Notes: generated from the letters alone by a model not told the origin. Shown: positions 11,064 to 47,594, counted from the first letter of the stretch. The stretch is DNA of 64,000 nucleotides from Nostocoides sp. (GCA_047974805.1 JBKECS010000066.1:27133-91132); one strand, 5' to 3'. Translations and numbers: made by a program.

Positions 11064-12631
11064 TCCAGCGCATCTTCGTGCCTGCCGATAGTGCCGCCGT
11101 TGCCGTCGGCGCCGACGAGGTGGCCGCCGCCTTCGCCGCGAACCCACAAGCCGCCGACGCGGAGATCGTCCGCACCGGTTCACGCGGCATGCTCTGGCTC
11201 GAACCGCTCGTCGAGGTCGAAACCACCGCGGGCCGGGTTGGGTATGCCAACGCCACGGTCACCGATGTCACCAGCATCCTCGATGGCAGCGCCGAATCCA
11301 TCGGGGTCGTCACAGATCACCCCTATCTGGCCGGCCAGGACCGGGTTTCCTTCGCCCGGGTCGGGGTCATCTCCCCCACCGACGTGGCCGCCTACCAGGC
11401 CCACGGCGGCTACGCCGGGCTCCGCCGCGCGCTCACCCTCACCCCGAGCGAGGTCATCGCCGAGGTCACGGCGTCCGGGCTGCGCGGCCGCGGTGGCGCC
11501 GGCTTTCCTGCCGGGATCAAATGGACGACGGTCGCTGACGCCGAGGCATCCCCCAAGTTCGTCGCCTGCAACGCCGATGAGGGCGACTCCGGAACCTTTG
11601 CCGACCGGATCCTCATTGAGGGCGACCCCTTCACGCTCATCGAAGGCATGACCATCGCCGGTTATGCGACCGGAGCCCGCGAAGGGTTCGTCTACGTTCG
11701 CTCGGAATATCCCGCTGCTGCCCAGACGCTCCAGGCCGCGATCGACCTCGCGTATGCCGAACACCTGCTGGGCCCGGACATCCTCGGCTCAGGCCTCGCC
11801 TTCGACCTGGCGGTCCGGATCGGTGCCGGGGCTTACATCTGTGGTGAGGAAACCTCCATGTTGGAGAGCCTCGAGGGCCGTCGGGGGGAGGTCCGCGCGA
11901 AGCCGCCCATCCCCGCCTTGTCCGGCCTCTGGGAACGGCCGACCCTGGTCAACAATGTGCTCACCTTTGGCGCGGTGCCGATGATCCTCGCAGACGGTTC
12001 CCAGGCCTATGGCCACCTGGGAGTTGGCCGCTCCCGCGGCACCCAGGTCTTCCAGCTCGGCGGGAATGTCGCCCGTGGCGGCATTGTCGAGGCCTCCTTC
12101 GGGATCAGCCTGGGTGAGCTCATCAATCGGTTCGGCGGCGGCACCGCCACCGGCCGTCCCGTCAAAGCCGTTCAGGTCGGTGGCCCACTCGGGGCATACC
12201 TCACCCCTGACCAGTTCGATCTGCCGATGGACTATGAGGCATTCGCTGAGGCCGGAGCCATGATCGGCCACGGCGGCATCGTGCTCTGGGACGACGCGTT
12301 TGATGCCGCCGCCCTGGCTCGCTTCGCCATGGAGTTCTGCGCCAAGGAATCCTGCGGCAAGTGCACCCCGTGCCGGGTCGGCAGCGTCCGCGGAGTCGAG
12401 ATCATCGACCGGATCCGAGCCAGTGATGACGATAACGAGCGGACCGCGGGATTGACGGTGCTGAGCACCCTGTGCGACACCATGACCAAGGGGTCCCTGT
12501 GCGCCATGGGCGGGATGACGCCGGTGCCGGTGCGCAGCCTGGTGGCGGCCTTCCCCGAGGAATTCACCCACGCCCACCGAGAGATGCGCGGGCCTGGACG
12601 AGCAGTCAGCCAAACGGAGGACCAGTCATGA
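11060..12631 (+). CDS. fdsB: NAD-dependent formate dehydrogenase beta subunit (NuoF-like, FMN/NAD/4Fe-4S)
   Basis: GLRGRGGAGFPAGIKW, CNADEGDSGTFADR and ESCGKCTPCRVG. The ATG overlaps the fdsG stop (ATGA at 11060-11063). Confidence 0.9.
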   Translation: MIQRIFVPADSAAVAVGADEVAAAFAANPQAADAEIVRTGSRGMLWLEPLVEVETTAGRVGYANATVTDVTSILDGSAESIGVVTDHPYLAGQDRVSFARVGVISPTDVAAYQAHGGYAGLRRALTLTPSEVIAEVTASGLRGRGGAGFPAGIKWTTVADAEASPKFVACNADEGDSGTFADRILIEGDPFTLIEGMTIAGYATGAREGFVYVRSEYPAAAQTLQAAIDLAYAEHLLGPDILGSGLAFDLAVRIGAGAYICGEETSMLESLEGRRGEVRAKPPIPALSGLWERPTLVNNVLTFGAVPMILADGSQAYGHLGVGRSRGTQVFQLGGNVARGGIVEASFGISLGELINRFGGGTATGRPVKAVQVGGPLGAYLTPDQFDLPMDYEAFAEAGAMIGHGGIVLWDDAFDAAALARFAMEFCAKESCGKCTPCRVGSVRGVEIIDRIRASDDDNERTAGLTVLSTLCDTMTKGSLCAMGGMTPVPVRSLVAAFPEEFTHAHREMRGPGRAVSQTEDQS

Positions 12632-15447
12632 TCAGCGGCCAACCGGGCCTGGACGAGCCCGATCTCGGCACCCCGGAAGTCACCGCCATCGATTCGGCAT
12701 CCGAGGTGAGCGTGACCATCGATGGTCGCGCCATCGGCGTACCTGCCGGCACCTCGGTGATGCGCGCGGCCGCTCAGGCCGGGGTCACCATCCCCAAGCT
12801 GTGCGCCACCGATTCACTCGCCGCCTACGGTTCGTGCCGCCTGTGCCTGGTCGAGGTCGAGAACGCGAAGGGCACCCCGGCCTCCTGCACGACGCCGTGT
12901 ACCGACCAGATGGTCGTTCATACAGACACCGACCAACTCACCCGCCTGCGCCGGGACGTCATGGAGCTCTACCTCTCGGATCACCCAGCCGACTGCCCGG
13001 GCTGCCTCCGTGGCACCTGCGAGGTCGCGGCGTGGGCTCAGGCGACCGGGGCGACCGGAGAGGTGTACGGCCGGGACGGAGCCGGCCACCTGTCCCAGGT
13101 CATGGACGGCTCCAACCCATATTTCGACTACAACCCCTCCGCGTGCATCGTCTGCTCCCGCTGTGTACGGGCTTGCGACGAAGTTCAGGGCACCTTGGCT
13201 CTCAACGTCGCGGGACGCGGCTTCGACGCCAGGATCACCCCCGGGGGCAGCGACTTCCTTAACAGCGAGTGCGTCTCGTGCGGGGCCTGCGTCCAAGCGT
13301 GCCCGACCGAGGCCTTGATGGAGAAGTCCGCGGTCACCCTGGGAGCGCCGAGCCGGGTCGTGGAGACGACGTGCGCCTACTGTGGGGTCGGCTGCACCTT
13401 CCGCGCACAGGTTCGCGGCGAGGGTGAGGCAACCCAGGTCGTTCGGATGGTGCCGGCCAAGTCGGGCGGGGCCAACGAAGGACACAGCTGTGTCAAGGGG
13501 CGGTTCGCGTACGGCTATGCCCAGCACGCGGATCGGCAGCTGCACCCCATGGTGCGCGAGCGCATCGACGATCCATGGCGATCGGTCAGCTGGGAGGAGG
13601 CCATCGCAACGGTCGCCGAGCGGTTCGGCGCCCTGCAGGCGGCATACGGAACCGGAGCGATCGGGGCGATCAGTTCATCCCGGTGCACCAATGAAGAGGT
13701 GTACGTCGTCCAGAAGATGGTCCGGGCGGCGTTCGGAAACAACAACGTCGACACCTGCGCGCGGGTGTGTCACTCTCCCACCGGCTACGGGTTGAAGACG
13801 ACGTTCGGCACCTCCGCGGGCACCCAAGACTTTGCGTCGATCGATCAGGCCGACGTCATCCTGCTCATCGGGGCCAACCCCACCGATGCGCATCCGGTCG
13901 TCGGCTCCCGGATGAAGCGACGGGTCCGCGCCGGGGCCAAGATCATCGTCGCCGACCCACGCCGGATCGAGCTGGTCCGCAGCCCCCATGTCGAAGCGGC
14001 CTATCACCTCCCGGTCCGTCCGGGGACCAACGTCGCCTTCATCAACGCCATGGCGCACGTCATCGTCACCGAGGGTTTGCAGAACCAGGACTTCCTGGAC
14101 GCCCGCTGCGAGGGCGTGCAGGAGTACCTGACCTTCATCGCCGATCAGCAGCACGCGCCGGAGATGCTCGAGGCGGAGACCGGCATACCGGCGGCGGGTC
14201 TGCGGGCCGCCGCCCGGCTGTATGCCGCCGGGCCGAACTCGGCCATCTATTACGGTCTCGGGGTCACCGAGCACAGCCAGGGCTCCACCATGGTCATGGG
14301 GTTGGCCAATCTCGCCATGCTCACCGGCAACTTGGGGCGTGCCGGTGTCGGGGTCAACCCGCTGCGGGGGCAAAACAATGTCCAGGGCAGCTGTGACATG
14401 GGCTCCTTCCCGCACGAGTTCCCCGGCTACCGCCATGTGGCCACCGATGATGTGCGCGAGCTGTACGAATCGCTGTGGGGGGTGACGATCCCGCCGACCC
14501 CCGGTTTGCGTATCCCCAATATGTTCGACGAGGCGCTCGGCGGTAGCTTCCGTGGGTTGTTCGTCCAAGGCGAGGACATCGCCCAGTCCGATCCGAACAC
14601 CACACACGTCCAGGCCGCGCTGCGAGCCATGGACTGTATCGTCGTCCAGGACCTTTTCCTCAACGAGACCGCCCGGTTTGCCCACGTGTTCCTGCCCGGC
14701 TCCTCCTTCCTGGAGAAGGACGGCACCTTCACCAACGCCGAACGGCGGATCAACCGGGTGCGTCCGATCATGCCCAGCATTGCCGGCAAGGACGAATGGC
14801 AGGTCATCTGCGACATTGCCACCGCGATGGGCTACCCGATGAGGTATGCCGACCCGGCCCAGATCATGGACGAGATCGCCGCGACCACCCCCACCTTCGC
14901 CGGGGTGAGCTTCACGCGACTGGACACCGAGGGGTCCATGCAGTGGCCGGTCACGGCAGCGATGCCACACGGAACCCCGACCATGCATGTCGACGGGTTC
15001 GTTCGGGGCAAGGGCCTGCTCGTCGAGACCGTCTATGTGCCGACCACCGAACGCACCACCCGGCGCTTCCCGCTCGTGCTGACCACCGGGCGGATTCTCA
15101 CCCAGTACAACGTGGGCGCGCAGACCCGCCGGACCGGCAACTCCACGTGGCACCCGACCGATGTGTTGGAGATCCACCCCGCCGACGCTCAGCTGCGCGG
15201 CATTCGGACCGGGGACATCGTGGAACTGGCCAGCCGCATCGGCAAGACGACACTGCCGGCGATGGTGTCTGACCGTATGCCGCCGGGGGTGGTCTACACG
15301 ACGTTCCACCACCCGGTCACCGGGGCAAACGTCGTCACCACCGACAACAGCGACTGGGCAACCAACTGCCCGGAGTACAAGGTCACCGCGGTCGACGTCA
15401 CCGTTGTCACGGCCTCGTCGGGCCAATCGGTCGGAGATCCCCGGTGA
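12628..15447 (+). CDS. fdsA: Formate dehydrogenase alpha subunit (Fe-S clusters plus molybdopterin domain, Cys type)
   Basis: Cluster motifs CRLCLVEVE, CIVCSRCVRACDEVQG, CVSCGACVQACPTEAL and CAYCGVGC, followed by a molybdopterin oxidoreductase domain. The active-site region reads CARVCHSP and there is no in-frame TGA. The ATG overlaps the fdsB stop. Confidence 0.92.
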   Translation: MISGQPGLDEPDLGTPEVTAIDSASEVSVTIDGRAIGVPAGTSVMRAAAQAGVTIPKLCATDSLAAYGSCRLCLVEVENAKGTPASCTTPCTDQMVVHTDTDQLTRLRRDVMELYLSDHPADCPGCLRGTCEVAAWAQATGATGEVYGRDGAGHLSQVMDGSNPYFDYNPSACIVCSRCVRACDEVQGTLALNVAGRGFDARITPGGSDFLNSECVSCGACVQACPTEALMEKSAVTLGAPSRVVETTCAYCGVGCTFRAQVRGEGEATQVVRMVPAKSGGANEGHSCVKGRFAYGYAQHADRQLHPMVRERIDDPWRSVSWEEAIATVAERFGALQAAYGTGAIGAISSSRCTNEEVYVVQKMVRAAFGNNNVDTCARVCHSPTGYGLKTTFGTSAGTQDFASIDQADVILLIGANPTDAHPVVGSRMKRRVRAGAKIIVADPRRIELVRSPHVEAAYHLPVRPGTNVAFINAMAHVIVTEGLQNQDFLDARCEGVQEYLTFIADQQHAPEMLEAETGIPAAGLRAAARLYAAGPNSAIYYGLGVTEHSQGSTMVMGLANLAMLTGNLGRAGVGVNPLRGQNNVQGSCDMGSFPHEFPGYRHVATDDVRELYESLWGVTIPPTPGLRIPNMFDEALGGSFRGLFVQGEDIAQSDPNTTHVQAALRAMDCIVVQDLFLNETARFAHVFLPGSSFLEKDGTFTNAERRINRVRPIMPSIAGKDEWQVICDIATAMGYPMRYADPAQIMDEIAATTPTFAGVSFTRLDTEGSMQWPVTAAMPHGTPTMHVDGFVRGKGLLVETVYVPTTERTTRRFPLVLTTGRILTQYNVGAQTRRTGNSTWHPTDVLEIHPADAQLRGIRTGDIVELASRIGKTTLPAMVSDRMPPGVVYTTFHHPVTGANVVTTDNSDWATNCPEYKVTAVDVTVVTASSGQSVGDPR

Positions 15448-19567: not shown

Positions 19568-20095
19568 TCAAAGGACCGCACACACGTAGTTCTGGCCTTT
19601 GCGGGTGAGCCGGACCTTGGCCGTGGGGTACCCGGGGCAAGGCGATCCATCGGGCAGAACCTCCGTCACCGCGATCGTCCCGGTCGTCGTGGAGGCGGAA
19701 TTGGCGACCGTCCCGGTCACCGTCAGGGTCAGACAGCTGCCGGCGGCAAGGGTCGTCCCCGTCACCAGGGTGCAGGTCGGTGGCAGGCTCGCCGAACAGG
19801 TCACGGAACCGTTGGTGGTCGTCGCGGACAATACGGTGATGTCGCCGGCGGAGGTGATGGCAAAGTGGGTTCCCGCTGGGATCGTTTCACCTGCAGCGGC
19901 ACACATCGTGTACGTGACCACTCCACCGGAACCGCAGGTGGCCGTGACGGCGTAGTTGGGCGCCTCCTGGCACGTCGGCGACGCCGCATAGGCACCGCTC
20001 GCGGCGCCGATCACGACCGCTGGTGTTGCCCACGCCACGCCGGAGGTTACCGTCCGACGCCGAACCTGCTGGGGCACGTTGGCATACGAAGTCAT
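19568..20095 (-). CDS. Secreted Thr/Cys-rich protein with a twin-arginine-like signal (unknown function)
   Basis: MTSYANVPQQVRRRTVTSGVAWATPAVVIGAASGAYA signal, followed by a Thr/Gly/Ala-rich mature part with 8 Cys. The N-terminus parallels that of the 23990..24925 protein. Confidence 0.6.
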   Translation of the reverse strand: MTSYANVPQQVRRRTVTSGVAWATPAVVIGAASGAYAASPTCQEAPNYAVTATCGSGGVVTYTMCAAAGETIPAGTHFAITSAGDITVLSATTTNGSVTCSASLPPTCTLVTGTTLAAGSCLTLTVTGTVANSASTTTGTIAVTEVLPDGSPCPGYPTAKVRLTRKGQNYVCAVL

Positions 20096-20292: not shown

Positions 20293-20718
20293 CTAGCTCA
20301 GGCTTGGGAACCAGATATCAATCTCGCGAATGGCCGATTCCGGTGAATCCGAACCGTGGACGACGTTCTGTTGCGCCGCTGTGCCCCAGTCCCGGCCGAG
20401 GTCGCCTCGGATGCTGCCAGGGGCGGCCGTGGTGGGATCGGTCGCGCCGGCGAGGGAACGGAAACCCCGAATGCAGTCCTGTCCCTGGATGACCACGGCC
20501 GTCACTGGGCCGGAGGACATGAACTCGATGAGCGACTCATAGAACGGCTTGCCCTCGTGCTCGGCGTAGTGCCGCGCCAAGTTCTCCCGGGTCGGCGTCA
20601 CCACCGCCAAGGCGAGCAGGACATACCCCTTGGCCTCGATCCGGCGCAGTACCTCACCGGTCAGGCCGCGGGCGTAACCGTCGGGTTTGACAAGGACGAG
20701 CGAGCGTTCGATGGTCAC
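20293..20718 (-). CDS. ndk: Nucleoside diphosphate kinase
   Basis: ERSLVLVKPDG...NVVHGSDSPESA. The GTG start at 20718 overlaps the stop of the upstream gene (GTGA). The track ORF is over-extended to 21297. Confidence 0.93.
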   Translation of the reverse strand: MTIERSLVLVKPDGYARGLTGEVLRRIEAKGYVLLALAVVTPTRENLARHYAEHEGKPFYESLIEFMSSGPVTAVVIQGQDCIRGFRSLAGATDPTTAAPGSIRGDLGRDWGTAAQQNVVHGSDSPESAIREIDIWFPSLS

Positions 20719-21134
20719 GAGGCCACTGTATCGGCGGGTGGCGCCGCGTCCACTTGGCCGCCACGGATGAGTGCCCACAGCCAAAGGGCCAGGAAGATGA
20801 GCCCAATGACCGCCATGGTCGGCACAACGAACGCGGAGGCGAGCGCGGCCAGCTGAACGAGCCAGCCCAGCGTCACGCCCCACGCCCTGCGCATGGCTCC
20901 TGCTGCGATCAACGCCATGACCGCCAAGGCCACCCCAAACCAGAGATAGCGGGCTGCGTGCCCATCCTCCCCGGCCACAGCGACGCCACGGGCGACCAGG
21001 GCGCCGAAGAAGATGACGATGGCCTCGGCGAACAGCACAAGTGCGCCCAACCGCCAGCTGAACGTGCCAAGTCGTCCAAAGAATGGGGGTCGTGTGCCGC
21101 GGGACGGCGATGACGATCCGACAGGGTTGTCCAC
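20715..21134 (-). CDS. DUF4233-like small membrane protein
   Basis: 139 aa with 3-4 hydrophobic helices, in the conserved actinobacterial slot between folC and ndk. Confidence 0.7.
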   Translation of the reverse strand: MDNPVGSSSPSRGTRPPFFGRLGTFSWRLGALVLFAEAIVIFFGALVARGVAVAGEDGHAARYLWFGVALAVMALIAAGAMRRAWGVTLGWLVQLAALASAFVVPTMAVIGLIFLALWLWALIRGGQVDAAPPADTVAS

Positions 21135-21157: not shown

Positions 21158-22585
21158 TCAGACCGAATCGGCGCCGAGCAGCATCCGGACCTCGGCCGCG
21201 GTGACCACCGACCCGGTGGCCACGATGCCACCGTTGACGCCGCCCTCGTCGGCCAGTTCGGCGGCCGCGTCGACGGCATCGGGCAGGTCCGCCACAACGC
21301 TGACCCGGTGCTCGCCGAAGATCTCGACGGCCAGTTCGCCGAGTTCGGCCGGATTCATCGCCCGTGGAGAGGTCGTGCGGGAGATGACGACCTCGTCGAA
21401 GATGGGTTCGAAGATCTCCAACATCCCGGTGGCATCCTTGTCGGCCATGACCGCGATGACACCGACGAGCTTGCCGAAAGCGAACGAGTCCTTCAACGCC
21501 TCGGCAAGCGCCCGCGCGCCGTGCGGGTTGTGTGCTGCATCGACGATCACCGTCGGAGAGCGTCGGACGATCTCCAAACGCCCAGGGCTCTTCACCGCCG
21601 CCAGGCCGGCGCGTAGCACGTCGATGTTCAGCGCCCGGCTGCCCCCACCGACAAAACACTCCACCGCGGCGACCGCCATGGCGGCGTTGTCGCCCTGGTG
21701 CGCCCCGTGCAGCGGAAGGAACAGATCGGCATACGTGGCAGCAAGCCCGGCGACCGTCAGGTTCTGGCCACCGACGGCGACGACGCGTTCGGTGACCGCG
21801 AAATCGATCCCTGCCACGGCAAGGCTCGCACCGGCCTGCTCGGCCGCCTCGGCCACGATGGCCGCGACGGCGGGGTCCTGGGCGGCGCTGACCACGTGAG
21901 CACCCGTCTTGATAATGCCCACCTTCTCGGTGGCGATCTGCTCCACCGAATCCCCCAGGAACCGGGTGTGATCCACTCCGATCGGGCCTATGACCGCCAC
22001 GTCTCCATCTGCGACGTTCGTGGCATCCCAACGCCCGCCGAGCCCGACCTCGACGATGGCCACGTCGACCGGTGAGTCCGCGAAGGCCGCATAGGCGACG
22101 GCGACAAGGGTTTGGAAGTAGTTCATTCGCGGGCCGCCGGCGGCCACGGTGCGCGCGTCCACCATTTCGACATACGGGCGGACCTCCTTGTATGCCGCAA
22201 TGAACTTCTCCGGCTCGATCGCAGCACCGTCCAGGGCGATGCGCTCCCTCAGGTCGTGCAGGTGCGGACTGGTGAACCGGCCGGTGCGAAGGCCGTGCTC
22301 ACGGAGGATCGATTCGATCAAGCGCGCCGTCGACGTCTTGCCATTGGTTCCGGTCAGGTGGATCACCGGAAAGGCACGCTGGGGATCCCCAAGCAGTTCC
22401 ATGACGGCGGTGATTTCTGCCAGGGAGGGGTCGATGTCGTTCTCCGGGGCGCGGGCCAGCAGCTCCTGGTCGATCTCCCGCAGGCGCCGGGTGACCTCCA
22501 GCTGGTGGGCAGCATGGCGGGCGGCGGCGTCGGGTGCGGGGCTCATCGGGCTAGTCTCGCGCACGACGCCGGGGTGTGCCGCCAC
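21158..22585 (-). CDS. folC: Folylpolyglutamate synthase / dihydrofolate synthase
   Basis: Mur-ligase P-loop HLTGTNGKTSTARLI. 475 aa, in the folC-DUF4233-ndk arrangement. Confidence 0.92.
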   Translation of the reverse strand: MAAHPGVVRETSPMSPAPDAAARHAAHQLEVTRRLREIDQELLARAPENDIDPSLAEITAVMELLGDPQRAFPVIHLTGTNGKTSTARLIESILREHGLRTGRFTSPHLHDLRERIALDGAAIEPEKFIAAYKEVRPYVEMVDARTVAAGGPRMNYFQTLVAVAYAAFADSPVDVAIVEVGLGGRWDATNVADGDVAVIGPIGVDHTRFLGDSVEQIATEKVGIIKTGAHVVSAAQDPAVAAIVAEAAEQAGASLAVAGIDFAVTERVVAVGGQNLTVAGLAATYADLFLPLHGAHQGDNAAMAVAAVECFVGGGSRALNIDVLRAGLAAVKSPGRLEIVRRSPTVIVDAAHNPHGARALAEALKDSFAFGKLVGVIAVMADKDATGMLEIFEPIFDEVVISRTTSPRAMNPAELGELAVEIFGEHRVSVVADLPDAVDAAAELADEGGVNGGIVATGSVVTAAEVRMLLGADSV

Positions 22586-22606
22586 GCCCGGCGTCTGGAG
22601 CGATGG

Positions 22607-23941
22607 CTACCCGTGGTTATGACCCTGCTCACCGTGAGCCTGGTGATCAAGCAGGTTCGGACCGTGCGGGCCGTCGTGACCGTGCACGTTGTCCGGGTCA
22701 CCGACATACGTCATGGTCAACTCACCGTGCATGAGTTGCTCCCTGGTGACCGGGATGACTCGTCCGTCGTTGAACGTCCACCAGGCGAACGGTTCGGAAC
22801 CGTCCGGCATGAGCGGGGCTGGCGGGGGCACGTATGCCGGCAGTTCGCCGGGATCGAAGCTGTCGAGCTCTGCGGCGATGTCCTCGACGAACTCGTCGAT
22901 ACCCGGCACCGAACCCACGGGGCCCCCAGCGAGCAGTCCGTCGGCGCCCAGGAGGACGGCGGAGGGGGATTCACCCAGGCCCAGCTCGTACCAGGCGCGA
23001 CCCTCATGGTCATACCACCCATCCTCGGGCGCAGCGACCTCCGGGCGCTGGTGCGCCTGGAACGGCAGCGTCGTGACGTAGTGCACGTCGACGAACGGCA
23101 GCGCCGCACGCCAACGCGACATACTCTCCAGCGCCAACGCAGTCGTGCCGCAGAAGCAGTTCGTCGCGACGAGCAGGACGGGTTTGCTCCGCGCGAGCTC
23201 CGGCAGGGAGGTCACCTCACCGGCGCGACCAACGAGATAGGCCATCGGGATGGGGCGGCGGACATAGTCGGGGTTGTCCCGATCGAGCGCGTCCAGGACC
23301 TCCTGATCGCTGATGGCTTGGACTGCGCCACCAACAGCATCGGATGGAGGACGCACAGCGGTGGCACCGACCCCGCCGGGGGGCGGCGCTGCCGGGCTCA
23401 CTGCAGTACCGGTGCTACTTGCGGTTGTTGAGCCTGCGGCCACGAACCAGACGACGACGCCAACCACAGCACTGGCGGCCAACCATCCCGCCGCGGATCC
23501 CCCGGGTGCCGCCAGAAGGGACCAGAGCGAGTCTCCGGCCAGACCGACCCCGACCGCCGCGACGGCAAGGACGACGAAGATGACGTTGCGGGTGACCGTT
23601 CGTCCGTTGATCCGCTGGTCCCCGATCTTGCCGAAGCACCCGCAGCTCGGGCGGGGGTCGAAGCGCATGGCGCGGGCGACCAGGGCTGCATAGGTGAGCA
23701 TGAGTGCCAGCGTCAACCACGAGGCGGCGAGGTAGATCGGGGCCCACGGGGTCAGCAGCCCCAAGGCAAGGGCGCCCTCTCCGGCGGGGAGGGCGACGCC
23801 GACCCACGGCTTGGCAAACGCCCTTGGCAAACGGAGGTTGGCGATGACCGACCTGGTGGAATACCGGTCCCGCCATTTGGCGTACCCGCTAAGCAGCAGC
23901 ACACCGGCTAGCACCAACGGCGCCACAGCAAGAAATGTCAC
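22607..23941 (-). CDS. MauE/DoxX-like membrane domain fused to a thioredoxin-like domain with a His-rich C-terminus
   Basis: The N-terminal ~170 aa has 4-5 helices and the SCGCFG motif typical of MauE-type proteins. The C-terminal half has a TlpA/thioredoxin-like layout with NCFCG where a CxxC is expected. The tail reads HGHDGPHGPNLLDHQAHGEQGHNHG. GTG start. Confidence 0.6.
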   Translation of the reverse strand: MTFLAVAPLVLAGVLLLSGYAKWRDRYSTRSVIANLRLPRAFAKPWVGVALPAGEGALALGLLTPWAPIYLAASWLTLALMLTYAALVARAMRFDPRPSCGCFGKIGDQRINGRTVTRNVIFVVLAVAAVGVGLAGDSLWSLLAAPGGSAAGWLAASAVVGVVVWFVAAGSTTASSTGTAVSPAAPPPGGVGATAVRPPSDAVGGAVQAISDQEVLDALDRDNPDYVRRPIPMAYLVGRAGEVTSLPELARSKPVLLVATNCFCGTTALALESMSRWRAALPFVDVHYVTTLPFQAHQRPEVAAPEDGWYDHEGRAWYELGLGESPSAVLLGADGLLAGGPVGSVPGIDEFVEDIAAELDSFDPGELPAYVPPPAPLMPDGSEPFAWWTFNDGRVIPVTREQLMHGELTMTYVGDPDNVHGHDGPHGPNLLDHQAHGEQGHNHG

Positions 23942-23989
23942 GTCGATTCACTCCTGTCGAGCACGGCGGCCCTCACGTGTATGCCCTGC

Positions 23990-24925
23990 TCAGAGGTGCC
24001 CGCCCGGGCTGCAGCCCCAGGCTGAGGTCGTGCCGTCGGGCAGATAGCAGGCCACGGCCTTGGCGCTCTCGGTGTTGCAGTAGTACTGGTTCGCCACCGG
24101 ACGGCAGGAGGTGAACCCGTTGGCGGTCGAGGACACCGTGCCGGAGCAGGACGTGACCGCGCTGGAGGTGTCGATCGACGCGGTCAGGGTGCAGCAGGCG
24201 CCGGAGCCGTAATAGTTCGTCCCGGTTCCGCCGAGCGTGGTGCAGCCGGCGTTTTGGGTCTGGGCGAAGTTGGGACTGAACGAGACCCCGAAGCATCGAT
24301 AGAAGACCCCCGTGTCCATATCCGGCCCCCAGATGTGGGTCGGGCACCAGGCGTCGTTGAAGGTCAGCGTGAACGTATTGCTCGCACCTTCGACCCAGCC
24401 ACTCAGCCCGGAGCACATCGCGGTGGTCTGGGTCTTGGCATACGCGGTGGGGACCGGGTCGGTGAAGCCCGTCCCGGGATAGCACGGGTTGTAGGGGTAG
24501 TTGCACGGGCCGGGTGTCGGCGTCGCGTAGTGGTTCGTGTAGGGAGCCTGGTAGCTCATGATCCAGCACGAGCAACCCAGCCCGTTAGCGCAGGTGTAGC
24601 TGAAGGTGATGATCGTGCCCTTGGGGATGCAGTCATCATTGACCGTCGCCACGGTCTGGGTCGCGCCAGCGTTGTCGCAGTTGGGACAGATCTGGAACCA
24701 GGCCCGGGTCGTGCGGGTCGAGCCCGGGATCCCGTTGGAGATCTGCTCACAAAACCACGAGCTGCATCCGGCGATGTCGGGACAATCGGGCAGGCTGGCC
24801 GAGGACGCCAGCGCGGGGGTGGCGCCGGCGACGACGACGGTGGGCACGGCCCATGCCGATCCTCGCATGACCGAGCGGCGGCGAACACCTGGTGTCGAAT
24901 TCGTGGCAGGAGCGTCAGTGGTCAT
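23990..24925 (-). CDS. Secreted cysteine-rich protein with a twin-arginine-like signal (unknown function)
   Basis: MTTDAPATNSTPGVRRRSVMRGSAWAVPTVVVAGATPALA signal. I count 22 Cys in the ~270-aa mature part, including CxC and CC pairs. No family recognised. Confidence 0.6.
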   Translation of the reverse strand: MTTDAPATNSTPGVRRRSVMRGSAWAVPTVVVAGATPALASSASLPDCPDIAGCSSWFCEQISNGIPGSTRTTRAWFQICPNCDNAGATQTVATVNDDCIPKGTIITFSYTCANGLGCSCWIMSYQAPYTNHYATPTPGPCNYPYNPCYPGTGFTDPVPTAYAKTQTTAMCSGLSGWVEGASNTFTLTFNDAWCPTHIWGPDMDTGVFYRCFGVSFSPNFAQTQNAGCTTLGGTGTNYYGSGACCTLTASIDTSSAVTSCSGTVSSTANGFTSCRPVANQYYCNTESAKAVACYLPDGTTSAWGCSPGGHL

Positions 24926-25095
24926 GGGGAACGGCACCTCGCGGGGGACGACATCAACCAGCGGCGGCACCTCGACATTTGCCAACCACCGGGTAATGAA
25001 AATAGGGCAGCGGGGTCGCCCAGGGACGGCATAGACCTTAACCCAGCCAGGCACGCCAGGCAGCCAGCCCGTCACCCGGTGCGTTGAGTGAGGCT

Positions 25096-25130
25096 GTCGC
25101 CTGGGGTTGCGGCACGTAATCCCAGGCGAC
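25096..25130 (-). terminator. Stem-loop after ileS
   Basis: 10-bp perfect inverted repeat GTCGCCTGGG (25096-25105) / CCCAGGCGAC (25121-25130), 25 nt after the ileS stop. Confidence 0.45.
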
Positions 25131-25154
25131 GGGCACATCCTGGAGCCGGTGTAG

Positions 25155-28100
25155 TCAGCGTTTGCGGATCAGCAGGCGGACCCGCAAGTTGTCGCCGACG
25201 GTGGTTTCGGTGACCTCCTCGTCAGTAGCGTCGAGGTCGTCGAGGTGCATCGAGGCCGACAGCTGCTGCGACAGCGTCTCGGACATCACCAGGTCCCGGT
25301 GCTCCACGGTGGCCCTCCATACTGGTTCGGCGCCCACGATGGTGGCGGAAATCCGGTCGGTGACCTCGAGCCCGGCGTCCTTGCGCGCCTGCTGTACGGC
25401 ACGGACAAGGTCGCGCGCCACGCCCTCGGTGGCCAGCGCGTCGGTGACCTCAACATCAAGCACGACGAACCCGCCACCATTGAGCATCCCCGTCGCCGTG
25501 CCCGAGGAGTCGCCGTCACCGGCGACCATCTCCAGGGTGTACTCCCCCGGCGCCAACACGATGCCTCCAGCCGTCACTTCTCCGGCCCCCGACACTGACC
25601 AGTCGCCACTCTTGGCGCCGCGGATGGCCGTCTGGACGTCCTTGCCCAGCCTCGGGCCGGCGAGGCGGGCATTGACGGTCAATGCCTCAGTGACGCCGAA
25701 GCCGGCGGCGGCCTCGTCCGTGTCGGACATCAGGCGCACCTGCTTGACGTTGACCTCCTCGGCAATGATCGGCTCGAACCCGGCAAGCGCCTCGGGGTCG
25801 GCGGTGACCACGGTCAGGCTGGCCAACGGCAATCGAGTCCGCAGGCCGGCGCCCTTGCGCAGCGAGGAGGCCACTGAACACACCTCCCGGACCTTGTCCA
25901 TGGCAGCGACCAAGCCGTCGTCGCGGGGCAGGTCACCGGCCGAAGGCCAGTCGGTCAGGTGCACCGAGCGGCCACCGGTCAGGCCTCGCCAGATCTCCTC
26001 GGTGGTCAGCGGCAGGAGAGGCGCGGTGACCCGGCATACCGTCTCCAGCGTCGTATACAGCGTGTCGAAGGCCGCCTTGGTGCCGTCCTGATCACCGGAC
26101 CCGGTGTCCCAGAATCGTTCCCGCGAGCGACGCACATACCAGTTCGTCAGCACGTCGAGGAAGCTGCGCGTGGAGTCACACGCCCCGGCGATGTCGAAGG
26201 CGTCCAGCCGCTCGGTGGACTCGTGCACGTATGCCGCGAGCTTGGCCAGCAGGTACCGATCCAACGGGTCGTTCGAGGCCGTCGAACGCCTGGCCTCATA
26301 ACCGCTCTCCCCTAGTGCGTTGGCATAAAGGCTGAAGAAGTACCAGACGTTCCACAGCGGCAGCAGCACCTGGCGAACCCCGTCCCGGATGCCCTGCTCG
26401 GTGACGATGAGATTGCCGCCGCGCAAGATGGGCGAGGACATGAGGAACCAGCGCATCGCGTCCGCTCCGTCACGGTGGAACACCTCGGTGACGTCGGGAT
26501 AGTTGCGCAACGACTTGGACATCTTCGCTCCGTCGTTGCCGAGCACGATGCCATGGCTGATGCAGGCGGAGAATGCCGGACGATCGAAGAGTGCCGTGGC
26601 GAGGATGTGCAGGGTGTAGAACCAGCCACGGGTCTGCCCGATGTACTCGACGATGAAGTCCGCCGGGAAGTGCTGCTCGAACCACTCGGCATTCTCGAAC
26701 GGGTAGTGCACCTGGGCAAAGCTCATCGACCCGGAGTCGAACCAGACGTCGAGCACGTCCTCGACCCGGCGCATCGTCGAATTCCCGGTCGGGTCATCCG
26801 GGTTTGGCCGGGTCAGTTGGTCGATGTAGGGCCGGTGCACGTCCGGCTCACCGGTGGGGCCGATGGGGAGACGGCCGAAGTCCGCCTCCAGCTCCGCCAG
26901 CGAGCCATAGACGTCGACCCGGGGGTATGCCGGGTCGTCGGACTTCCACACCGGGATGGGGCTACCCCAGAACCGGTTCCGGGAGATGGACCAGTCGCGG
27001 GCATTCTCCAACCATTTGCCGAATTGGCCGTCCTTGACGTGCTCGGGCACCCAGGTGATCTCCTGGTTGAGCGCCACCATCCGATCCTTGAACTTCGTCA
27101 CCTCGACGAACCATGAGCTGACCGCCATGTAGATCAGCGGCTGCCGGCAGCGCCAACAATGCGGGTAGGAGTGCTCGTAGGTTTCCCGCCGGACCAGCAC
27201 GGTGCCGTCGGTGACACTGCCCCGTTCGCCACCGGCGGTGGCGGCGTTGAGATGGTCGAGAATCAGCCCATTGGCGTCCAGCACCTGGATGTTCTCGTAG
27301 TCGGTGACCGGGAAGGTGAACCTGCCGTCCGGACCCACCGGTACCACCGGAGCGATGCCCGCAGCGTCGGTGACGACCTTGTCCTCCTCACCGAACGCCG
27401 GCGCGATGTGGACGAGCCCGGTCCCGTCCTCGGTGGTGACGTAGTCCGCAGGCAGGATCTGGTGGGCGCCTGCGTGTCCGAGGAAGTAGGAGAACGGCGG
27501 GGTGTAGTGCGTGCCGACGAGGTCCGCTCCCTTGACGCTCGCGACGACCCGGTCGGCGACATCCTCACCCAGCTCGCGGGCGTAGGCGGCCAGCCGTTCC
27601 CGCGCCAACAGGTAACGCTCCTCCTGCCCCGTGGGACCGTCCGAGGTGACCACGACATAGTCGACATCGGGGTGCACCGCCATGGCGAGGTTGGACGGCA
27701 ACGTCCATGGGGTGGTCGTCCAGATCAGCGCCAGCGTCCCCGCATACGGGCCGTCGCTCAGCCGCAACCCAAGCGTCACGGCGGGGTCTTGCCGGGACCG
27801 GTAGACCTCCTCGTCCATGCGCAGTTCGTGGTTGCTCAGCGGGGTCTGGTCGTTCCAGCAATAGGGCAGCACCCGGAAGCCCTCGTAGACCCAGCCCTTG
27901 TCGTACAGCGACTTGAACGCCCACAGCACCGACTCCATGAAGGTGGGGTTGAGTGTCTTGTAATCGTGCTCGAAATCGACCCAGCGAGCTTGGCGGGTAA
28001 CGTAGGCCCGCCACTCGTCGGTGTACTTCAGGACCGAGGCGCGACACTTTTCGTTGAACGTGCCGATCCCCAGGTCGAGGATCTCCTCCTTGGTCTTGAT

Positions 28101-28481
28101 CCCCAGCTGGCTCATCGCCTCCAACTCGGCGGGCAGACCGTGAGTGTCCCACCCGAAGCGGCGTTCCACCTTGCGCCCACACATGGTCTGGTAGCGGGGC
28201 ACGATGTCCTTGACATAGCCGGTGAGCAGGTGGCCGTAGTGCGGAAGACCGTTGGCGAAGGGTGGGCCGTCATAAAAGACGAATTCGTTGGCGCCGTCGA
28301 CGCCGGCGCCACGGTTGTCGATGGAGGCCTGAAAGGTGTCGTCGGCAGCCCAGTAGGCAAGGACTCGTTCCTCGATCTCCGGGAAATTCGGGGAGGGAGG
28401 GATCACCGTCGAGGCGTCATGGCTGGCGGAGTGCTCGTCGGGGTCGCCAACGGGTCCGGTGCTCGCCTTGGGGTAGGCCAT
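25155..28481 (-). CDS. ileS: Isoleucine--tRNA ligase
   Basis: [14 protein letters not shown] (HIGH region) and KMSKSLRN (KMSKS). ATG at 28481 is preceded by AAGGAG. The track ORF over-extends to 28769 through the leader. Confidence 0.95.
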
Positions 28482-46859: not shown

Positions 46860-47474
46860 TCAATCGATGATGGGGTCTCGGGTCCGGCTGCGCTTGAGCT
46901 CGAAGAAGCCGTCTGTGCCGGCGACGAGCAGACAGCCGTCCCAGAGCGCGCCGGCAGCCTCACCGGTGGGCGCCGGGGAGACCACCGGCCCGAAGAAGGC
47001 GACCCCGTTGACCGCGATCGTCGGGGTACCCACATCTGGGCCGACCAGGGAAATCACGGTGTCCTTGGTGGTCCGCAACTGGTCGTCGAGTTCGGTCGTG
47101 TCGGCATACGCCGCGTAGTCGGCGGCCAAGCCGACCTCGGCCAGGGCCGGTGTGATGACGTCGGCGACCGGACGGATGCCGTCCCGGTGCACCCGGGTGC
47201 CCATGGCGTCGTACAAGGCCTTGACCGTGGCGTTGTCGTTGTCCCGGGCCACGGCCGCGACCACGCGGGCCGGTGCCCACGCGGTGTCAAGGAAGGTCCG
47301 GTAATCGGCCGACAGGTCCCGCCCTTCATTCAGCGCCGCCAGGGACATCACGTGCCAGGTGACCCTGACATCTCGCACCTTCTCGACCTCCATCATCCAC
47401 CGGGAGGCCATCCATGCCCACGGGCAGAGCGGGTCGAACCAGAAGTCGGCAGTGTTCGCACCTTGTTCAGCCAT
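46860..47474 (-). CDS. DsbA-family thioredoxin-fold protein (monothiol CPWA variant)
   Basis: FWFDPLCPWAWMASRW sits where relatives carry CPWC. About 204 aa. Start chosen at MAEQGANT (47474). Confidence 0.7.
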   Translation of the reverse strand: MAEQGANTADFWFDPLCPWAWMASRWMMEVEKVRDVRVTWHVMSLAALNEGRDLSADYRTFLDTAWAPARVVAAVARDNDNATVKALYDAMGTRVHRDGIRPVADVITPALAEVGLAADYAAYADTTELDDQLRTTKDTVISLVGPDVGTPTIAVNGVAFFGPVVSPAPTGEAAGALWDGCLLVAGTDGFFELKRSRTRDPIID

Positions 47475-47594
47475 GGCGCCATCCTGCCATCGGCACTGAA
47501 AGAATACTTCTGCGGGTCGGCCCCAAGACACCGGCTCGCGGCCTGGTCGGTGCCAGACCCCACCGGCTCGGCGAGTTGATCACGAGGAGATGTC

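Follow-up and report, generated by a model that had tools for sequence, protein, structure and literature searches.

Actinobacteria favour disulfide bonds in their secreted proteins, and oxidative folding in Actinomyces, Corynebacterium and Mycobacterium relies on MdbA/DsbA and VKOR. The oxidation of many disulfide-bonded proteins secreted by Actinobacteria is only partly known, and the membrane protein MauE was proposed as a third widespread disulfide generator only in 2026. The present work examines a locus in a 64,000-nucleotide (nt) stretch of DNA from Nostocoides sp. (GCA_047974805.1 JBKECS010000066.1:27133-91132), hereafter the window, in which a gene for a MauE-type membrane domain fused to a thioredoxin-fold domain lies next to a gene for a cysteine-rich, predicted exported protein, both being situated between ileS and folC.

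MauA, matured by the classical MauE/MauD pair, carries six disulfides and a twin-arginine leader. Twin-arginine translocation (Tat) exports folded proteins. In uropathogenic Escherichia coli, DsbL/DsbI with AssT represents an extra oxidase copy encoded beside one disulfide-containing exported protein, with the dedication experimentally shown. CxC disulfides are strained and oxidising, and the quinone used by Actinobacteria is menaquinone, not ubiquinone.

Direct evidence on MauE comes from a preprint of March 2026 (bioRxiv 10.64898/2026.03.05.709764), in which a delta-dsbB strain of E. coli regains motility and PhoA activity when given MauE from either of two phyla, and mutating either Cys of the CXC motif abolishes DsbB replacement in two MauE proteins. 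The same preprint describes a conserved Phe-Gly after the CXC, together with a helix-1 Lys and a helix-2 Glu that line the docked quinone. It further reports a thioredoxin-superfamily domain fused to MauE in 8.2% of the InterPro entries for MauE, thioredoxin fusions accounting for about 9% of the VKOR entries, and draws the analogy between the two. An earlier note on this locus, made from the DNA alone, had been unaware of any description for such a fusion; that view is out of date, since the preprint reports MauE-thioredoxin fusions and an NCBI family name ('MauE/DoxX family redox-associated membrane protein') already exists.

The architecture is of a known kind, a predicted one-chain analogue of DsbB plus DsbA comparable to VKOR-thioredoxin proteins. 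New here are a thioredoxin domain invisible to Pfam with a CxC site, the second Cys of which has been relocated from +3 to -2, and the status of the window copy as a second, divergent paralogue that ends in a His-rich tail and was inserted with an orphan Cys-rich gene in the otherwise conserved ileS-folC-DUF4233-ndk block. The interpretation preferred here, to which we give an even chance, is a single-chain disulfide-generating fusion serving mainly its Cys-rich neighbour.

Domain architecture of the fusion protein

The fusion product of 444 residues was modelled with AlphaFold2 on 28 homologues, with a mean predicted local distance difference test (pLDDT) score of 79, and invariant positions were taken from an alignment of 28 diverse family members. 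Only four Cys are present (100, 102, 262 and 264), constituting two CxC pairs. The N-terminal part is a MauE-type membrane domain, as the earlier note had proposed, matching Pfam PF07291 above the cut-off of 27 bits (84.6 bits; E 9e-24; residues 3-129, profile positions 4-125 of 128) and forming helices at residues 2-24, 45-62, 67-91 and 113-134 in the model. The SCGCFG motif named in the note is found at residues 99-104, with C100, C102, F103 and G104 invariant; K22, E55, R90, T115, R118 and N119 complete the invariant set of the membrane part. K22 and E55 are the helix-1 Lys and helix-2 Glu proposed as quinone contacts, and all the MauE sequence features of the preprint (CXC, Phe-Gly, Lys, Glu) are present and invariant in the fusion family. 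A role in redox chemistry and disulfide formation, suggested by the note, fits the MauE experiments (bioRxiv 10.64898/2026.03.05.709764).

A predicted fifth transmembrane helix and a disordered linker connect the membrane domain to the thioredoxin part. The linker, where the G+C content at third codon positions (GC3) drops to 0.56, varies in length and sequence across the alignment. A count of five helices would place the thioredoxin domain and the CGC loop on one side of the membrane.

The thioredoxin-fold domain is modelled with pLDDT values mostly above 90 over residues 235-360. A Foldseek search against the PDB matched DsbE, ResA, CcmG, TlpA and StoA with a probability of 1.0 and target template-modelling (TM) scores of 0.6-0.74, the top 50 matches being nearly all TlpA, ResA, CcmG, DsbE, StoA, SdbA or Mycobacterium tuberculosis DsbE. 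A family profile searched against the PDB identified Bacillus subtilis YkuV (E 7e-5), whose first CxxC Cys falls opposite C264 in the alignment. These results bear out the thioredoxin-like fold that the earlier note had assigned to the C-terminal part, and no Pfam or NCBIfam model (Redoxin, AhpC-TSA, Thioredoxin_2 and others) matched this half, either within the full-length protein or alone. The domain comprises a conserved DYVRxPIP entry motif, the active site N-C262-F-C264-G-T-T, a predicted cis-Pro loop S-P326-S-A-V-L-L and the family signature LGADGLLAGGPV. Invariant residues include Y226, R228, P232, C264 and the LGADGLLAGGPV signature, while P326, located directly before the strand at residues 327-331, is at least 90% conserved, its cis state being a prediction.

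The CFCG that the note had seen in place of CxxC is a CxC site retaining the first canonical Cys. The alignment and the YkuV match identify the invariant C264 as the first, nucleophilic Cys of CxxC, with C262 at -2 and Thr at +3. The fusion belongs to a sizeable subclade that follows the motif [N/T]-C-x-C-[G/A]-x-[T/S], in which the +3 Cys is replaced by Thr or Ser, and distant family members keep a CGSC or CGPC active site. Among the 120 protein clusters nearest to the query, CxC sites number 76 versus 36 CxxC sites; among 79 species-representative loci, the corresponding counts are 21 versus 58.

TlpA, ResA, CcmG, DsbE and YkuV, the best structural and profile matches of residues 212-360, share the membrane-tethered fold, the N-terminal extension and the cis-Pro loop with this domain. 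They differ in having a CxxC site and in being mostly kept reduced via CcdA or DsbD, whereas in the Nostocoides domain the second CxxC Cys is missing and a Cys is found at -2; their Pfam models do not recognise it, and it is joined to a membrane domain of the oxidase type. Because its thioredoxin domain is invisible to Pfam, the fusion family is unlikely to be counted in the 8.2% given above, and database counts of MauE-thioredoxin fusions are probably underestimates. With exactly two CxC pairs and no other Cys, the protein offers a clean system for a CxC-to-CxC disulfide relay.

MauE/MauD-MauA and the Nostocoides locus have in common the Pfam family, the CXC-F-G loop joining helices 3 and 4, the Lys of helix 1, the Glu of helix 2, a thioredoxin-fold partner and a small Cys-rich exported protein nearby, there MauA with its six disulfides. 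In the Nostocoides protein, however, the partner is fused via the fifth helix and is not a separate MauD, its site is CxC and not CxxC, no mau genes are present, and a unique His-rich extension is added. VKOR-thioredoxin fusions, for example cyanobacterial VKOR, likewise unite a four-helix quinone-linked generator, a fifth helix and a same-side thioredoxin-like domain, but the membrane domain here belongs to the MauE/DoxX clan, unrelated to VKOR, and carries a single CXC pair in place of a loop pair plus CxxC, the thioredoxin site being CxC. MdbA/DsbA-VKOR presumably fulfil the same role, oxidative folding of exported actinobacterial proteins, with other components that are separate proteins.

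The C-terminal extension is missing from all other members of the alignment, and neither a search with an 87-residue query nor tblastn on the family loci found a homologue of the tail. In the model it forms a weak beta-hairpin and helix (residues 386-404, pLDDT 65-72) followed by a disordered end (below 50). As the earlier note had stated, the protein ends in a His-rich tail, HGHDGPHGPNLLDHQAHGEQGHNHG, with 8 His in 25 residues. His-rich C-termini occur sporadically in the family, as in P0063, whose final 30 residues include 15 His, and in P0088, and are absent from the great majority of members. A metal-related or partner-binding role of the tail is possible.

Properties of the Cys-rich neighbour

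The neighbouring gene encodes a precursor of 311 residues with the N-terminus MTTDAPATNSTPGVRRRSVMRGSAWAVPTVVVAGATPALA. Translation confirms the 22 Cys counted in the earlier note, every one lying beyond the predicted AxA cleavage site, including a CSC at residues 118/120 and a CC at 244/245. The Cys are spaced 5-23 residues apart, with one CxxC, one CxC and one CC only. The mature protein (about 271 residues, 28 kDa, pI 4.5) is rich in T, G, S, A, P, N and Y, has charged side chains (D, E, K, R) at only 21 positions and shows no internal repeat.

The twin-arginine-like signal described in the note is likewise present in the translated sequence, reading V-R-R-R-S-V-M-R-G before the hydrophobic h-region GSAWAVPTVVVAGATPALA and the AxA site, with a c-region devoid of Sec-avoidance charge. 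The best NCBIfam matches are Tat-target families, all below threshold (E 0.12), and assignment of the signal to Tat is plausible.

Homology searches show the protein to be an orphan. A word-indexed search of 5.8 billion clusters returned only an identical copy from another assembly (P0121), and HMMER against 1.84 billion representatives gave marginal matches only (E 5.7e-6 or weaker), which, save one to an internal stretch, are confined to the signal peptide plus the N-terminal portion of the mature protein. Searches of Pfam, NCBIfam and PDB sequences gave no match. AlphaFold2 run without an alignment yielded an unusable model (pLDDT 34), from which no disulfide map was derivable.

The signal itself belongs to a class, RRxVxKGAAWAVPAV...AxA, shared by numerous small secreted proteins of Micrococcales that show no other relationship. 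Members of this class (P0122-P0129; L025, L035, L040, L042, L051, L058, L060-L063, L069, L073 and L078) combine the conserved signal RRxVVKGAAWAVPAV..A.A with unrelated, fast-evolving mature parts. They often contain several Cys, many having one immediately behind the cleavage site and a further one at the very C-terminus, and no Pfam or NCBIfam model matches the class. A second protein with a signal of this class (RRRTVTSGVAWATPAVVIGAASGAYA) and 8 Cys is encoded at 19568-20095 (-), just downstream of ndk and 2.5 kb from the fusion gene; apart from this and the Cys-rich gene, a motif scan detected no further open reading frame (ORF) of the Tat-class Cys type in the 64-kb window. In L062 (Nostocoides) and L025 (Janibacter), a family member is followed in turn by a convergent ftsK, a Tat-class secreted protein and RNase J, a conserved arrangement that puts the Tat-class protein about 3 kb away.

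Coding statistics indicate that the Cys-rich and fusion ORFs look like real genes. The Cys-rich ORF has an ATG start with a GAGG Shine-Dalgarno sequence about 9 nt upstream, and the fusion ORF has a GTG start with AGGAG 9 nt upstream; GC3 values are 0.87 and 0.79, respectively. Codon-usage log-likelihoods amount to +0.34 bits per codon for the Cys-rich ORF, +0.32 for the fusion ORF and +0.37 for the tail alone, matching those of housekeeping genes, as compared with at most 0.05 in the other five frames. Both products, of 311 and 444 residues, are also annotated by the NCBI pipeline in the Nostocoides sp. metagenome-assembled genome (MFV0463682.1 and MFV0463681.1). That the Cys-rich ORF is not a gene and the tail a functionless read-through of a former intergenic region is therefore highly improbable: the lack of homologues for both and the poorly predicted structure of the tail would suit this explanation, but the frame-specific codon statistics of ORF and tail equal those of housekeeping genes with the other frames negative or near zero, the Cys-rich ORF possesses a Shine-Dalgarno sequence and a well-formed signal peptide whose class recurs elsewhere, and an identical ORF exists in an independent assembly in addition to the pipeline annotation.

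Family, paralogy and the ileS-folC insertion

The fusion family comprises more than 150 protein clusters, with 157 loci found by a pattern scan of GTDB representative genomes. Its members, mostly of about 350 residues, come from Micrococcales and Propionibacteriales. The closest homologues of the window copy, P0002 and P0003 (about 50% identity), adjoin SAF/tad pilus-assembly genes, with a convergent ftsK gene downstream of P0002. On the same 102,840-bp contig, outside the window and 34 protein accession numbers away, lies the paralogue P0004, with about 48% identity. In a neighbour-joining tree the window copy branches outside (P0004,(P0002,P0003)), and the window's fusion gene is thus a divergent extra paralogue with a unique tail. 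Paralogue pairs are present in several genomes (L014/L042, L032/L039, L030/L033 and L055/L057).

P0004 (MFV0463647.1, locus L084) has 348 residues and a CFCG site, lacks a tail and directly follows a peptidase M19 gene. Some family members, mostly from Propionibacteriales, carry two tandem thioredoxin domains after MauE (P0059, P0068, P0083 and P0099; L064, L066, L068 and L074), usually one with CxxC and the other with CxC. Long N-terminal 'extensions' in L033, L053, L058 and L079 were rejected as added domains, being artefacts of longest-ORF calling.

Genomic context was analysed in 80 genome loci of the fusion family and, separately, in 80 metagenomic loci with a related folC (50-67% identity). 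The interval between ileS and folC was rejected as a conserved position of the family, none of the 80 family loci being there and ileS, folC, DUF4233 and ndk standing beside a family member in 0/80. The related folC loci retain the ileS-folC-DUF4233-ndk order, with an ileS-folC gap ranging from overlap to about 600 nt, and no MauE or Cys-rich gene occurs in that gap (0/80). Since relatives keep the block without them, the two genes represent a lineage-specific insertion in a conserved housekeeping block. Nothing convincing was seen in the way of mobile-element signs (flanking repeats, compositional shift).

The ileS-folC gap is itself variable among relatives (L089, L091, L092, L097, L102, L106 and L111), several of which have a GNAT acetyltransferase of about 165 residues there, and L111 has three unrelated genes (membrane hydroxylase-like, AraC-type regulator and glyoxalase-like). 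The folC-DUF4233 and DUF4233-ndk spacers differ in length as well, by as much as 3-5 kb.

Proposed mechanism and relationship to the neighbour

In the preferred interpretation, the MauE domain would act like DsbB or VKOR, with the CGC pair C100/C102 re-oxidised by membrane quinone in a pocket lined by K22 and E55 beside that pair. Helix 5 and the flexible linker would hold the TlpA-like domain on the side of the CGC loop, which we infer to be extracytoplasmic, and the CGC pair would oxidise the thioredoxin CxC pair C262/C264, which would hand disulfides to exported proteins in a DsbA-like manner. This direction of electron flow fits the strained, oxidising nature of CxC disulfides. The chief client would be the neighbour, a poorly charged and presumably beta-rich protein with a Tat/Sec-type signal and an even, widely spaced set of 22 Cys, sufficient for up to 11 structural disulfides. 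It is favoured as main client because the fusion is a divergent second copy with a unique tail, the two genes arrived jointly in the ileS-folC block, and they are probably co-transcribed. As in DsbL/DsbI-AssT, an extra oxidase copy stands beside a candidate exported client; here other protein families are involved and the suggested dedication draws on adjacency, paralogy and weak recurrence. The locus accordingly offers a candidate helper-client pair, in which the 22-Cys orphan could serve as a stringent folding reporter.

A number of observations weigh against this interpretation, the first of them relating to the pairing. Co-occurrence of the two genes in other genomes, on which the earlier note had made the pairing depend, was not found: the Cys-rich protein has no homologue, and 0/80 family loci carry a related gene, although co-occurrence by homology is impossible for a neighbour that is an orphan. 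Most family members are without a Cys-rich neighbour, and a generic test gave Cys-rich products for 5/114 adjacent versus 15/530 distant genes (P = 0.37). With the ileS-folC gap being a general insertion spot, the adjacency of the two genes could be accidental. Clustering of the neighbours within four genes revealed no partner shared by more than 16/58 loci.

Two other lineages nevertheless have non-homologous Tat-class Cys-rich ORFs (6-10 Cys, about 190 residues) at a distance of 123-210 nt from a family member. One event involves Terrabacter, Humibacillus and an Intrasporangiaceae isolate (L035, L051, L058 and L061), cases that are counted once because they are syntenic; the other is in Aestuariimicrobium soli (L042), beside the second of its two family copies. 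From the local density of Tat-class ORFs, 0.14-0.24 adjacencies are expected by chance versus two independent ones seen, a rough estimate corresponding to P of about 0.01-0.025. The 0.58 Mb of folC loci contained no Tat-class Cys-rich ORF.

These data may also be explained by a second general-purpose MauE-thioredoxin oxidase copy, with the Cys-rich gene an unrelated passenger in a permissive intergenic spot, an account that we consider rather unlikely while giving it appreciable weight. The two genes are the sole insert in the gap, co-directional, 48 nt apart and without a terminator-like site between them; the window copy is divergent and has a unique tail; Tat-class Cys-rich ORFs abut the family above the local-density expectation; and the window encodes one further Tat-class Cys protein, at a distance of 2.5 kb. 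These points tell against a generalist; in its favour, the family is widespread, its neighbourhoods are variable and mostly housekeeping, paralogue pairs recur in several genomes, the generic neighbour test is non-significant, differing genes fill the ileS-folC gap in relatives, and the preprint argues that MauE is a generalist. Under that account the locus would be an ordinary lineage-specific insertion.

A dedicated relationship between the fusion and its Cys-rich neighbour remains plausible, and evenly poised once the enzymology is granted. The proposal of the earlier note, a dedicated oxidative-folding or metal-loading helper for one Cys-rich client, therefore stands in part: the extra divergent paralogue and the recurrent non-homologous Tat-class neighbours speak for dedication, co-occurrence by homology does not, and for metal loading the one pointer is the His-rich tail.

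The chemistry of the fusion raises further points on the opposing side. Its nearest structural relatives in Foldseek are mostly reductases, not oxidases, and one earlier study, cited in the preprint, suggested a reductase role for MauE (bioRxiv 10.64898/2026.03.05.709764). Both would suit a reductive or metallochaperone helper resembling TlpA with ScoI/CoxB, or ResA/CcmG, which would keep the Cys of a metal-binding neighbour reduced and load metal from the His-rich tail. The structural neighbours, mainly extracytoplasmic reductases, include TlpA complexed with ScoI and with CoxB, and the 8 His of the tail, echoed in P0063 and P0088, could serve metal delivery. Such a helper is nonetheless improbable, given that the Cys of the neighbour, 5-23 residues apart with one CxxC, CxC and CC each, do not resemble metallothionein-type clusters, that His-rich tails are missing in the great majority of the family, and that CxC disulfides are strained and oxidising. 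Moreover, MauE has no known route to cytoplasmic reductant, as the preprint also says, and both tested MauE proteins act as oxidases.

Membrane orientation constitutes the last difficulty. Averaged across the family, K+R counts reach 4.7 in loop 1 and 4.25 in the CGC loop versus at most 0.7 each at the N-terminus and in loops 2 and 4, a simple, uncalibrated count from which a naive positive-inside rule would assign the CGC loop, and with it the thioredoxin domain, to the cytoplasm. This runs contrary to the TOPCONS prediction and the functional evidence for the two MauE proteins tested in the preprint. Since many of the K/R residues occupy conserved columns, their excess may be functional and not topogenic. 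A tblastn search of plasmids for canonical MauE sequences as a topology control gave no match.

Taken literally, the charge distribution, strong and family-wide on the CGC side, would mean that Tat-signal clients receive their disulfides on the cytoplasmic face of the membrane and are then exported folded, in keeping with the twin-arginine-type signal on every recurrent Cys-rich neighbour. We regard this orientation as very unlikely. The two MauE proteins of the preprint replace DsbB for periplasmic DsbA, FlgI and PhoA, and TOPCONS predicts a periplasmic CXC for both; an extracytoplasmic location is typical of TlpA-like domains borne on long S/T/P/A linkers; most of the K/R residues are at conserved, probably functional positions; and the Tat assignment itself draws on sub-threshold matches.

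Only a slender chance is likewise given to the combined form, a client-dedicated oxidase with cytoplasmic CGC and CxC sites that would oxidise Tat-signal Cys-rich proteins so that folded forms pass Tat quality control. If true, it would tie together the K/R bias, the Tat-type signals of the neighbours, the dependence of MauA on MauE/MauD and the His-rich tail, which might bind a metal or a partner in the cytoplasm. The conflict over orientation and the link to Tat-type signals bear in any case on MauA maturation by classical MauE/MauD.

Gene layout and other features of the window

The ileS, Cys-rich, fusion, folC, DUF4233 and ndk genes all lie on the minus strand in that order (Table 1), and the two co-directional genes upstream of folC have the gaps of 48 nt and 21 nt given in the earlier note. 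The Cys-rich and fusion genes are probably co-transcribed, the scan having found no terminator-like site in the 48-nt spacer between them, and their promoter is presumed to be in the 229-nt spacer downstream of ileS. A weak terminator-like site occurs at 25005-25021 in that spacer, in a scan performing no better than chance (2 found versus 2.3 expected).

Table 1. Coordinates of the genes, spacers and protein features of the locus (window positions; aa, amino acids).
Feature	Positions	Strand	Basis and remarks
ileS	25155-28469	-	Pfam tRNA-synt_1, Anticodon_1, DUF5915 (class-I aminoacyl-tRNA synthetase, anticodon-binding); upstream edge of insertion
ileS/Cys-rich gene spacer	24926-25154	-	229 nt
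Cys-rich gene	23990-24925	-	ORF call, 311 aa, NCBI MFV0463682.1
Twin-arginine-type signal peptide (predicted)	24806-24925	-	aa 1-40; RRRSVMRG, then h-region GSAWAVPTVVVAGATPALA, then predicted AxA site
Cys-rich/fusion intergenic spacer	23942-23989	-	48 nt; contains AGGAG ribosome-binding site of fusion gene
MauE-thioredoxin fusion gene	22607-23941	-	ORF call, 444 aa, NCBI MFV0463681.1
MauE four-helix membrane domain	23537-23941	-	~aa 1-135; Pfam PF07291 and AlphaFold2 helices
CGC redox motif C100-G101-C102	23636-23644	-	Loop between helices 3 and 4
Fifth transmembrane helix	23426-23494	-	~aa 150-172; AlphaFold2
Disordered linker	23309-23425	-	~aa 173-211, S/T/A/P/G-rich; pLDDT <50 over aa 172-210
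TlpA/ResA-like thioredoxin-fold domain	22862-23308	-	~aa 212-360; AlphaFold2, Foldseek, profile, family alignment
Thioredoxin CxC active site C262-F263-C264	23150-23158	-	Family alignment columns; CFCG at aa 262-265
C-terminal extension	22610-22861	-	~85 aa, ~aa 361-444; family alignment
His-rich tail HGHDGPHGPNLLDHQAHGEQGHNHG	22610-22684	-	Last 25 residues, 8 His
Fusion/folC spacer	22586-22606	-	21 nt
folC	21158-22585	-	Pfam Mur_ligase_M and Mur_ligase_C; downstream edge of insertion
DUF4233 gene	20715-21134	-	Between folC and ndk

The ileS ORF reaches 28769, an internal start being the probable true one, and folC is called from a GTG at 22585, its true start possibly lying slightly further downstream. 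Two inverted repeats flank the inserted genes, each a possible terminator or regulatory element: a hairpin with 23-nt arms at 25089-25137, right after the ileS stop, and a repeat with 17-nt arms (22557-22573 and 22587-22603) that straddles the junction of the fusion stop and the folC start.

Elsewhere in the window, 46860-47531 (-) encodes a member of the Rv2466c family of mycothiol-dependent nitroreductases, a cytoplasmic protein with the DsbA fold and a CPWC site, in a block that also holds clpX, two Clp protease-like genes and valS. A formate-dehydrogenase-like molybdopterin oxidoreductase of 991 residues, with N-terminal 2Fe-2S and 4Fe-4S domains and 28 Cys, is encoded at 12472-15447 (+) and is followed by a TauE/SafE exporter gene.

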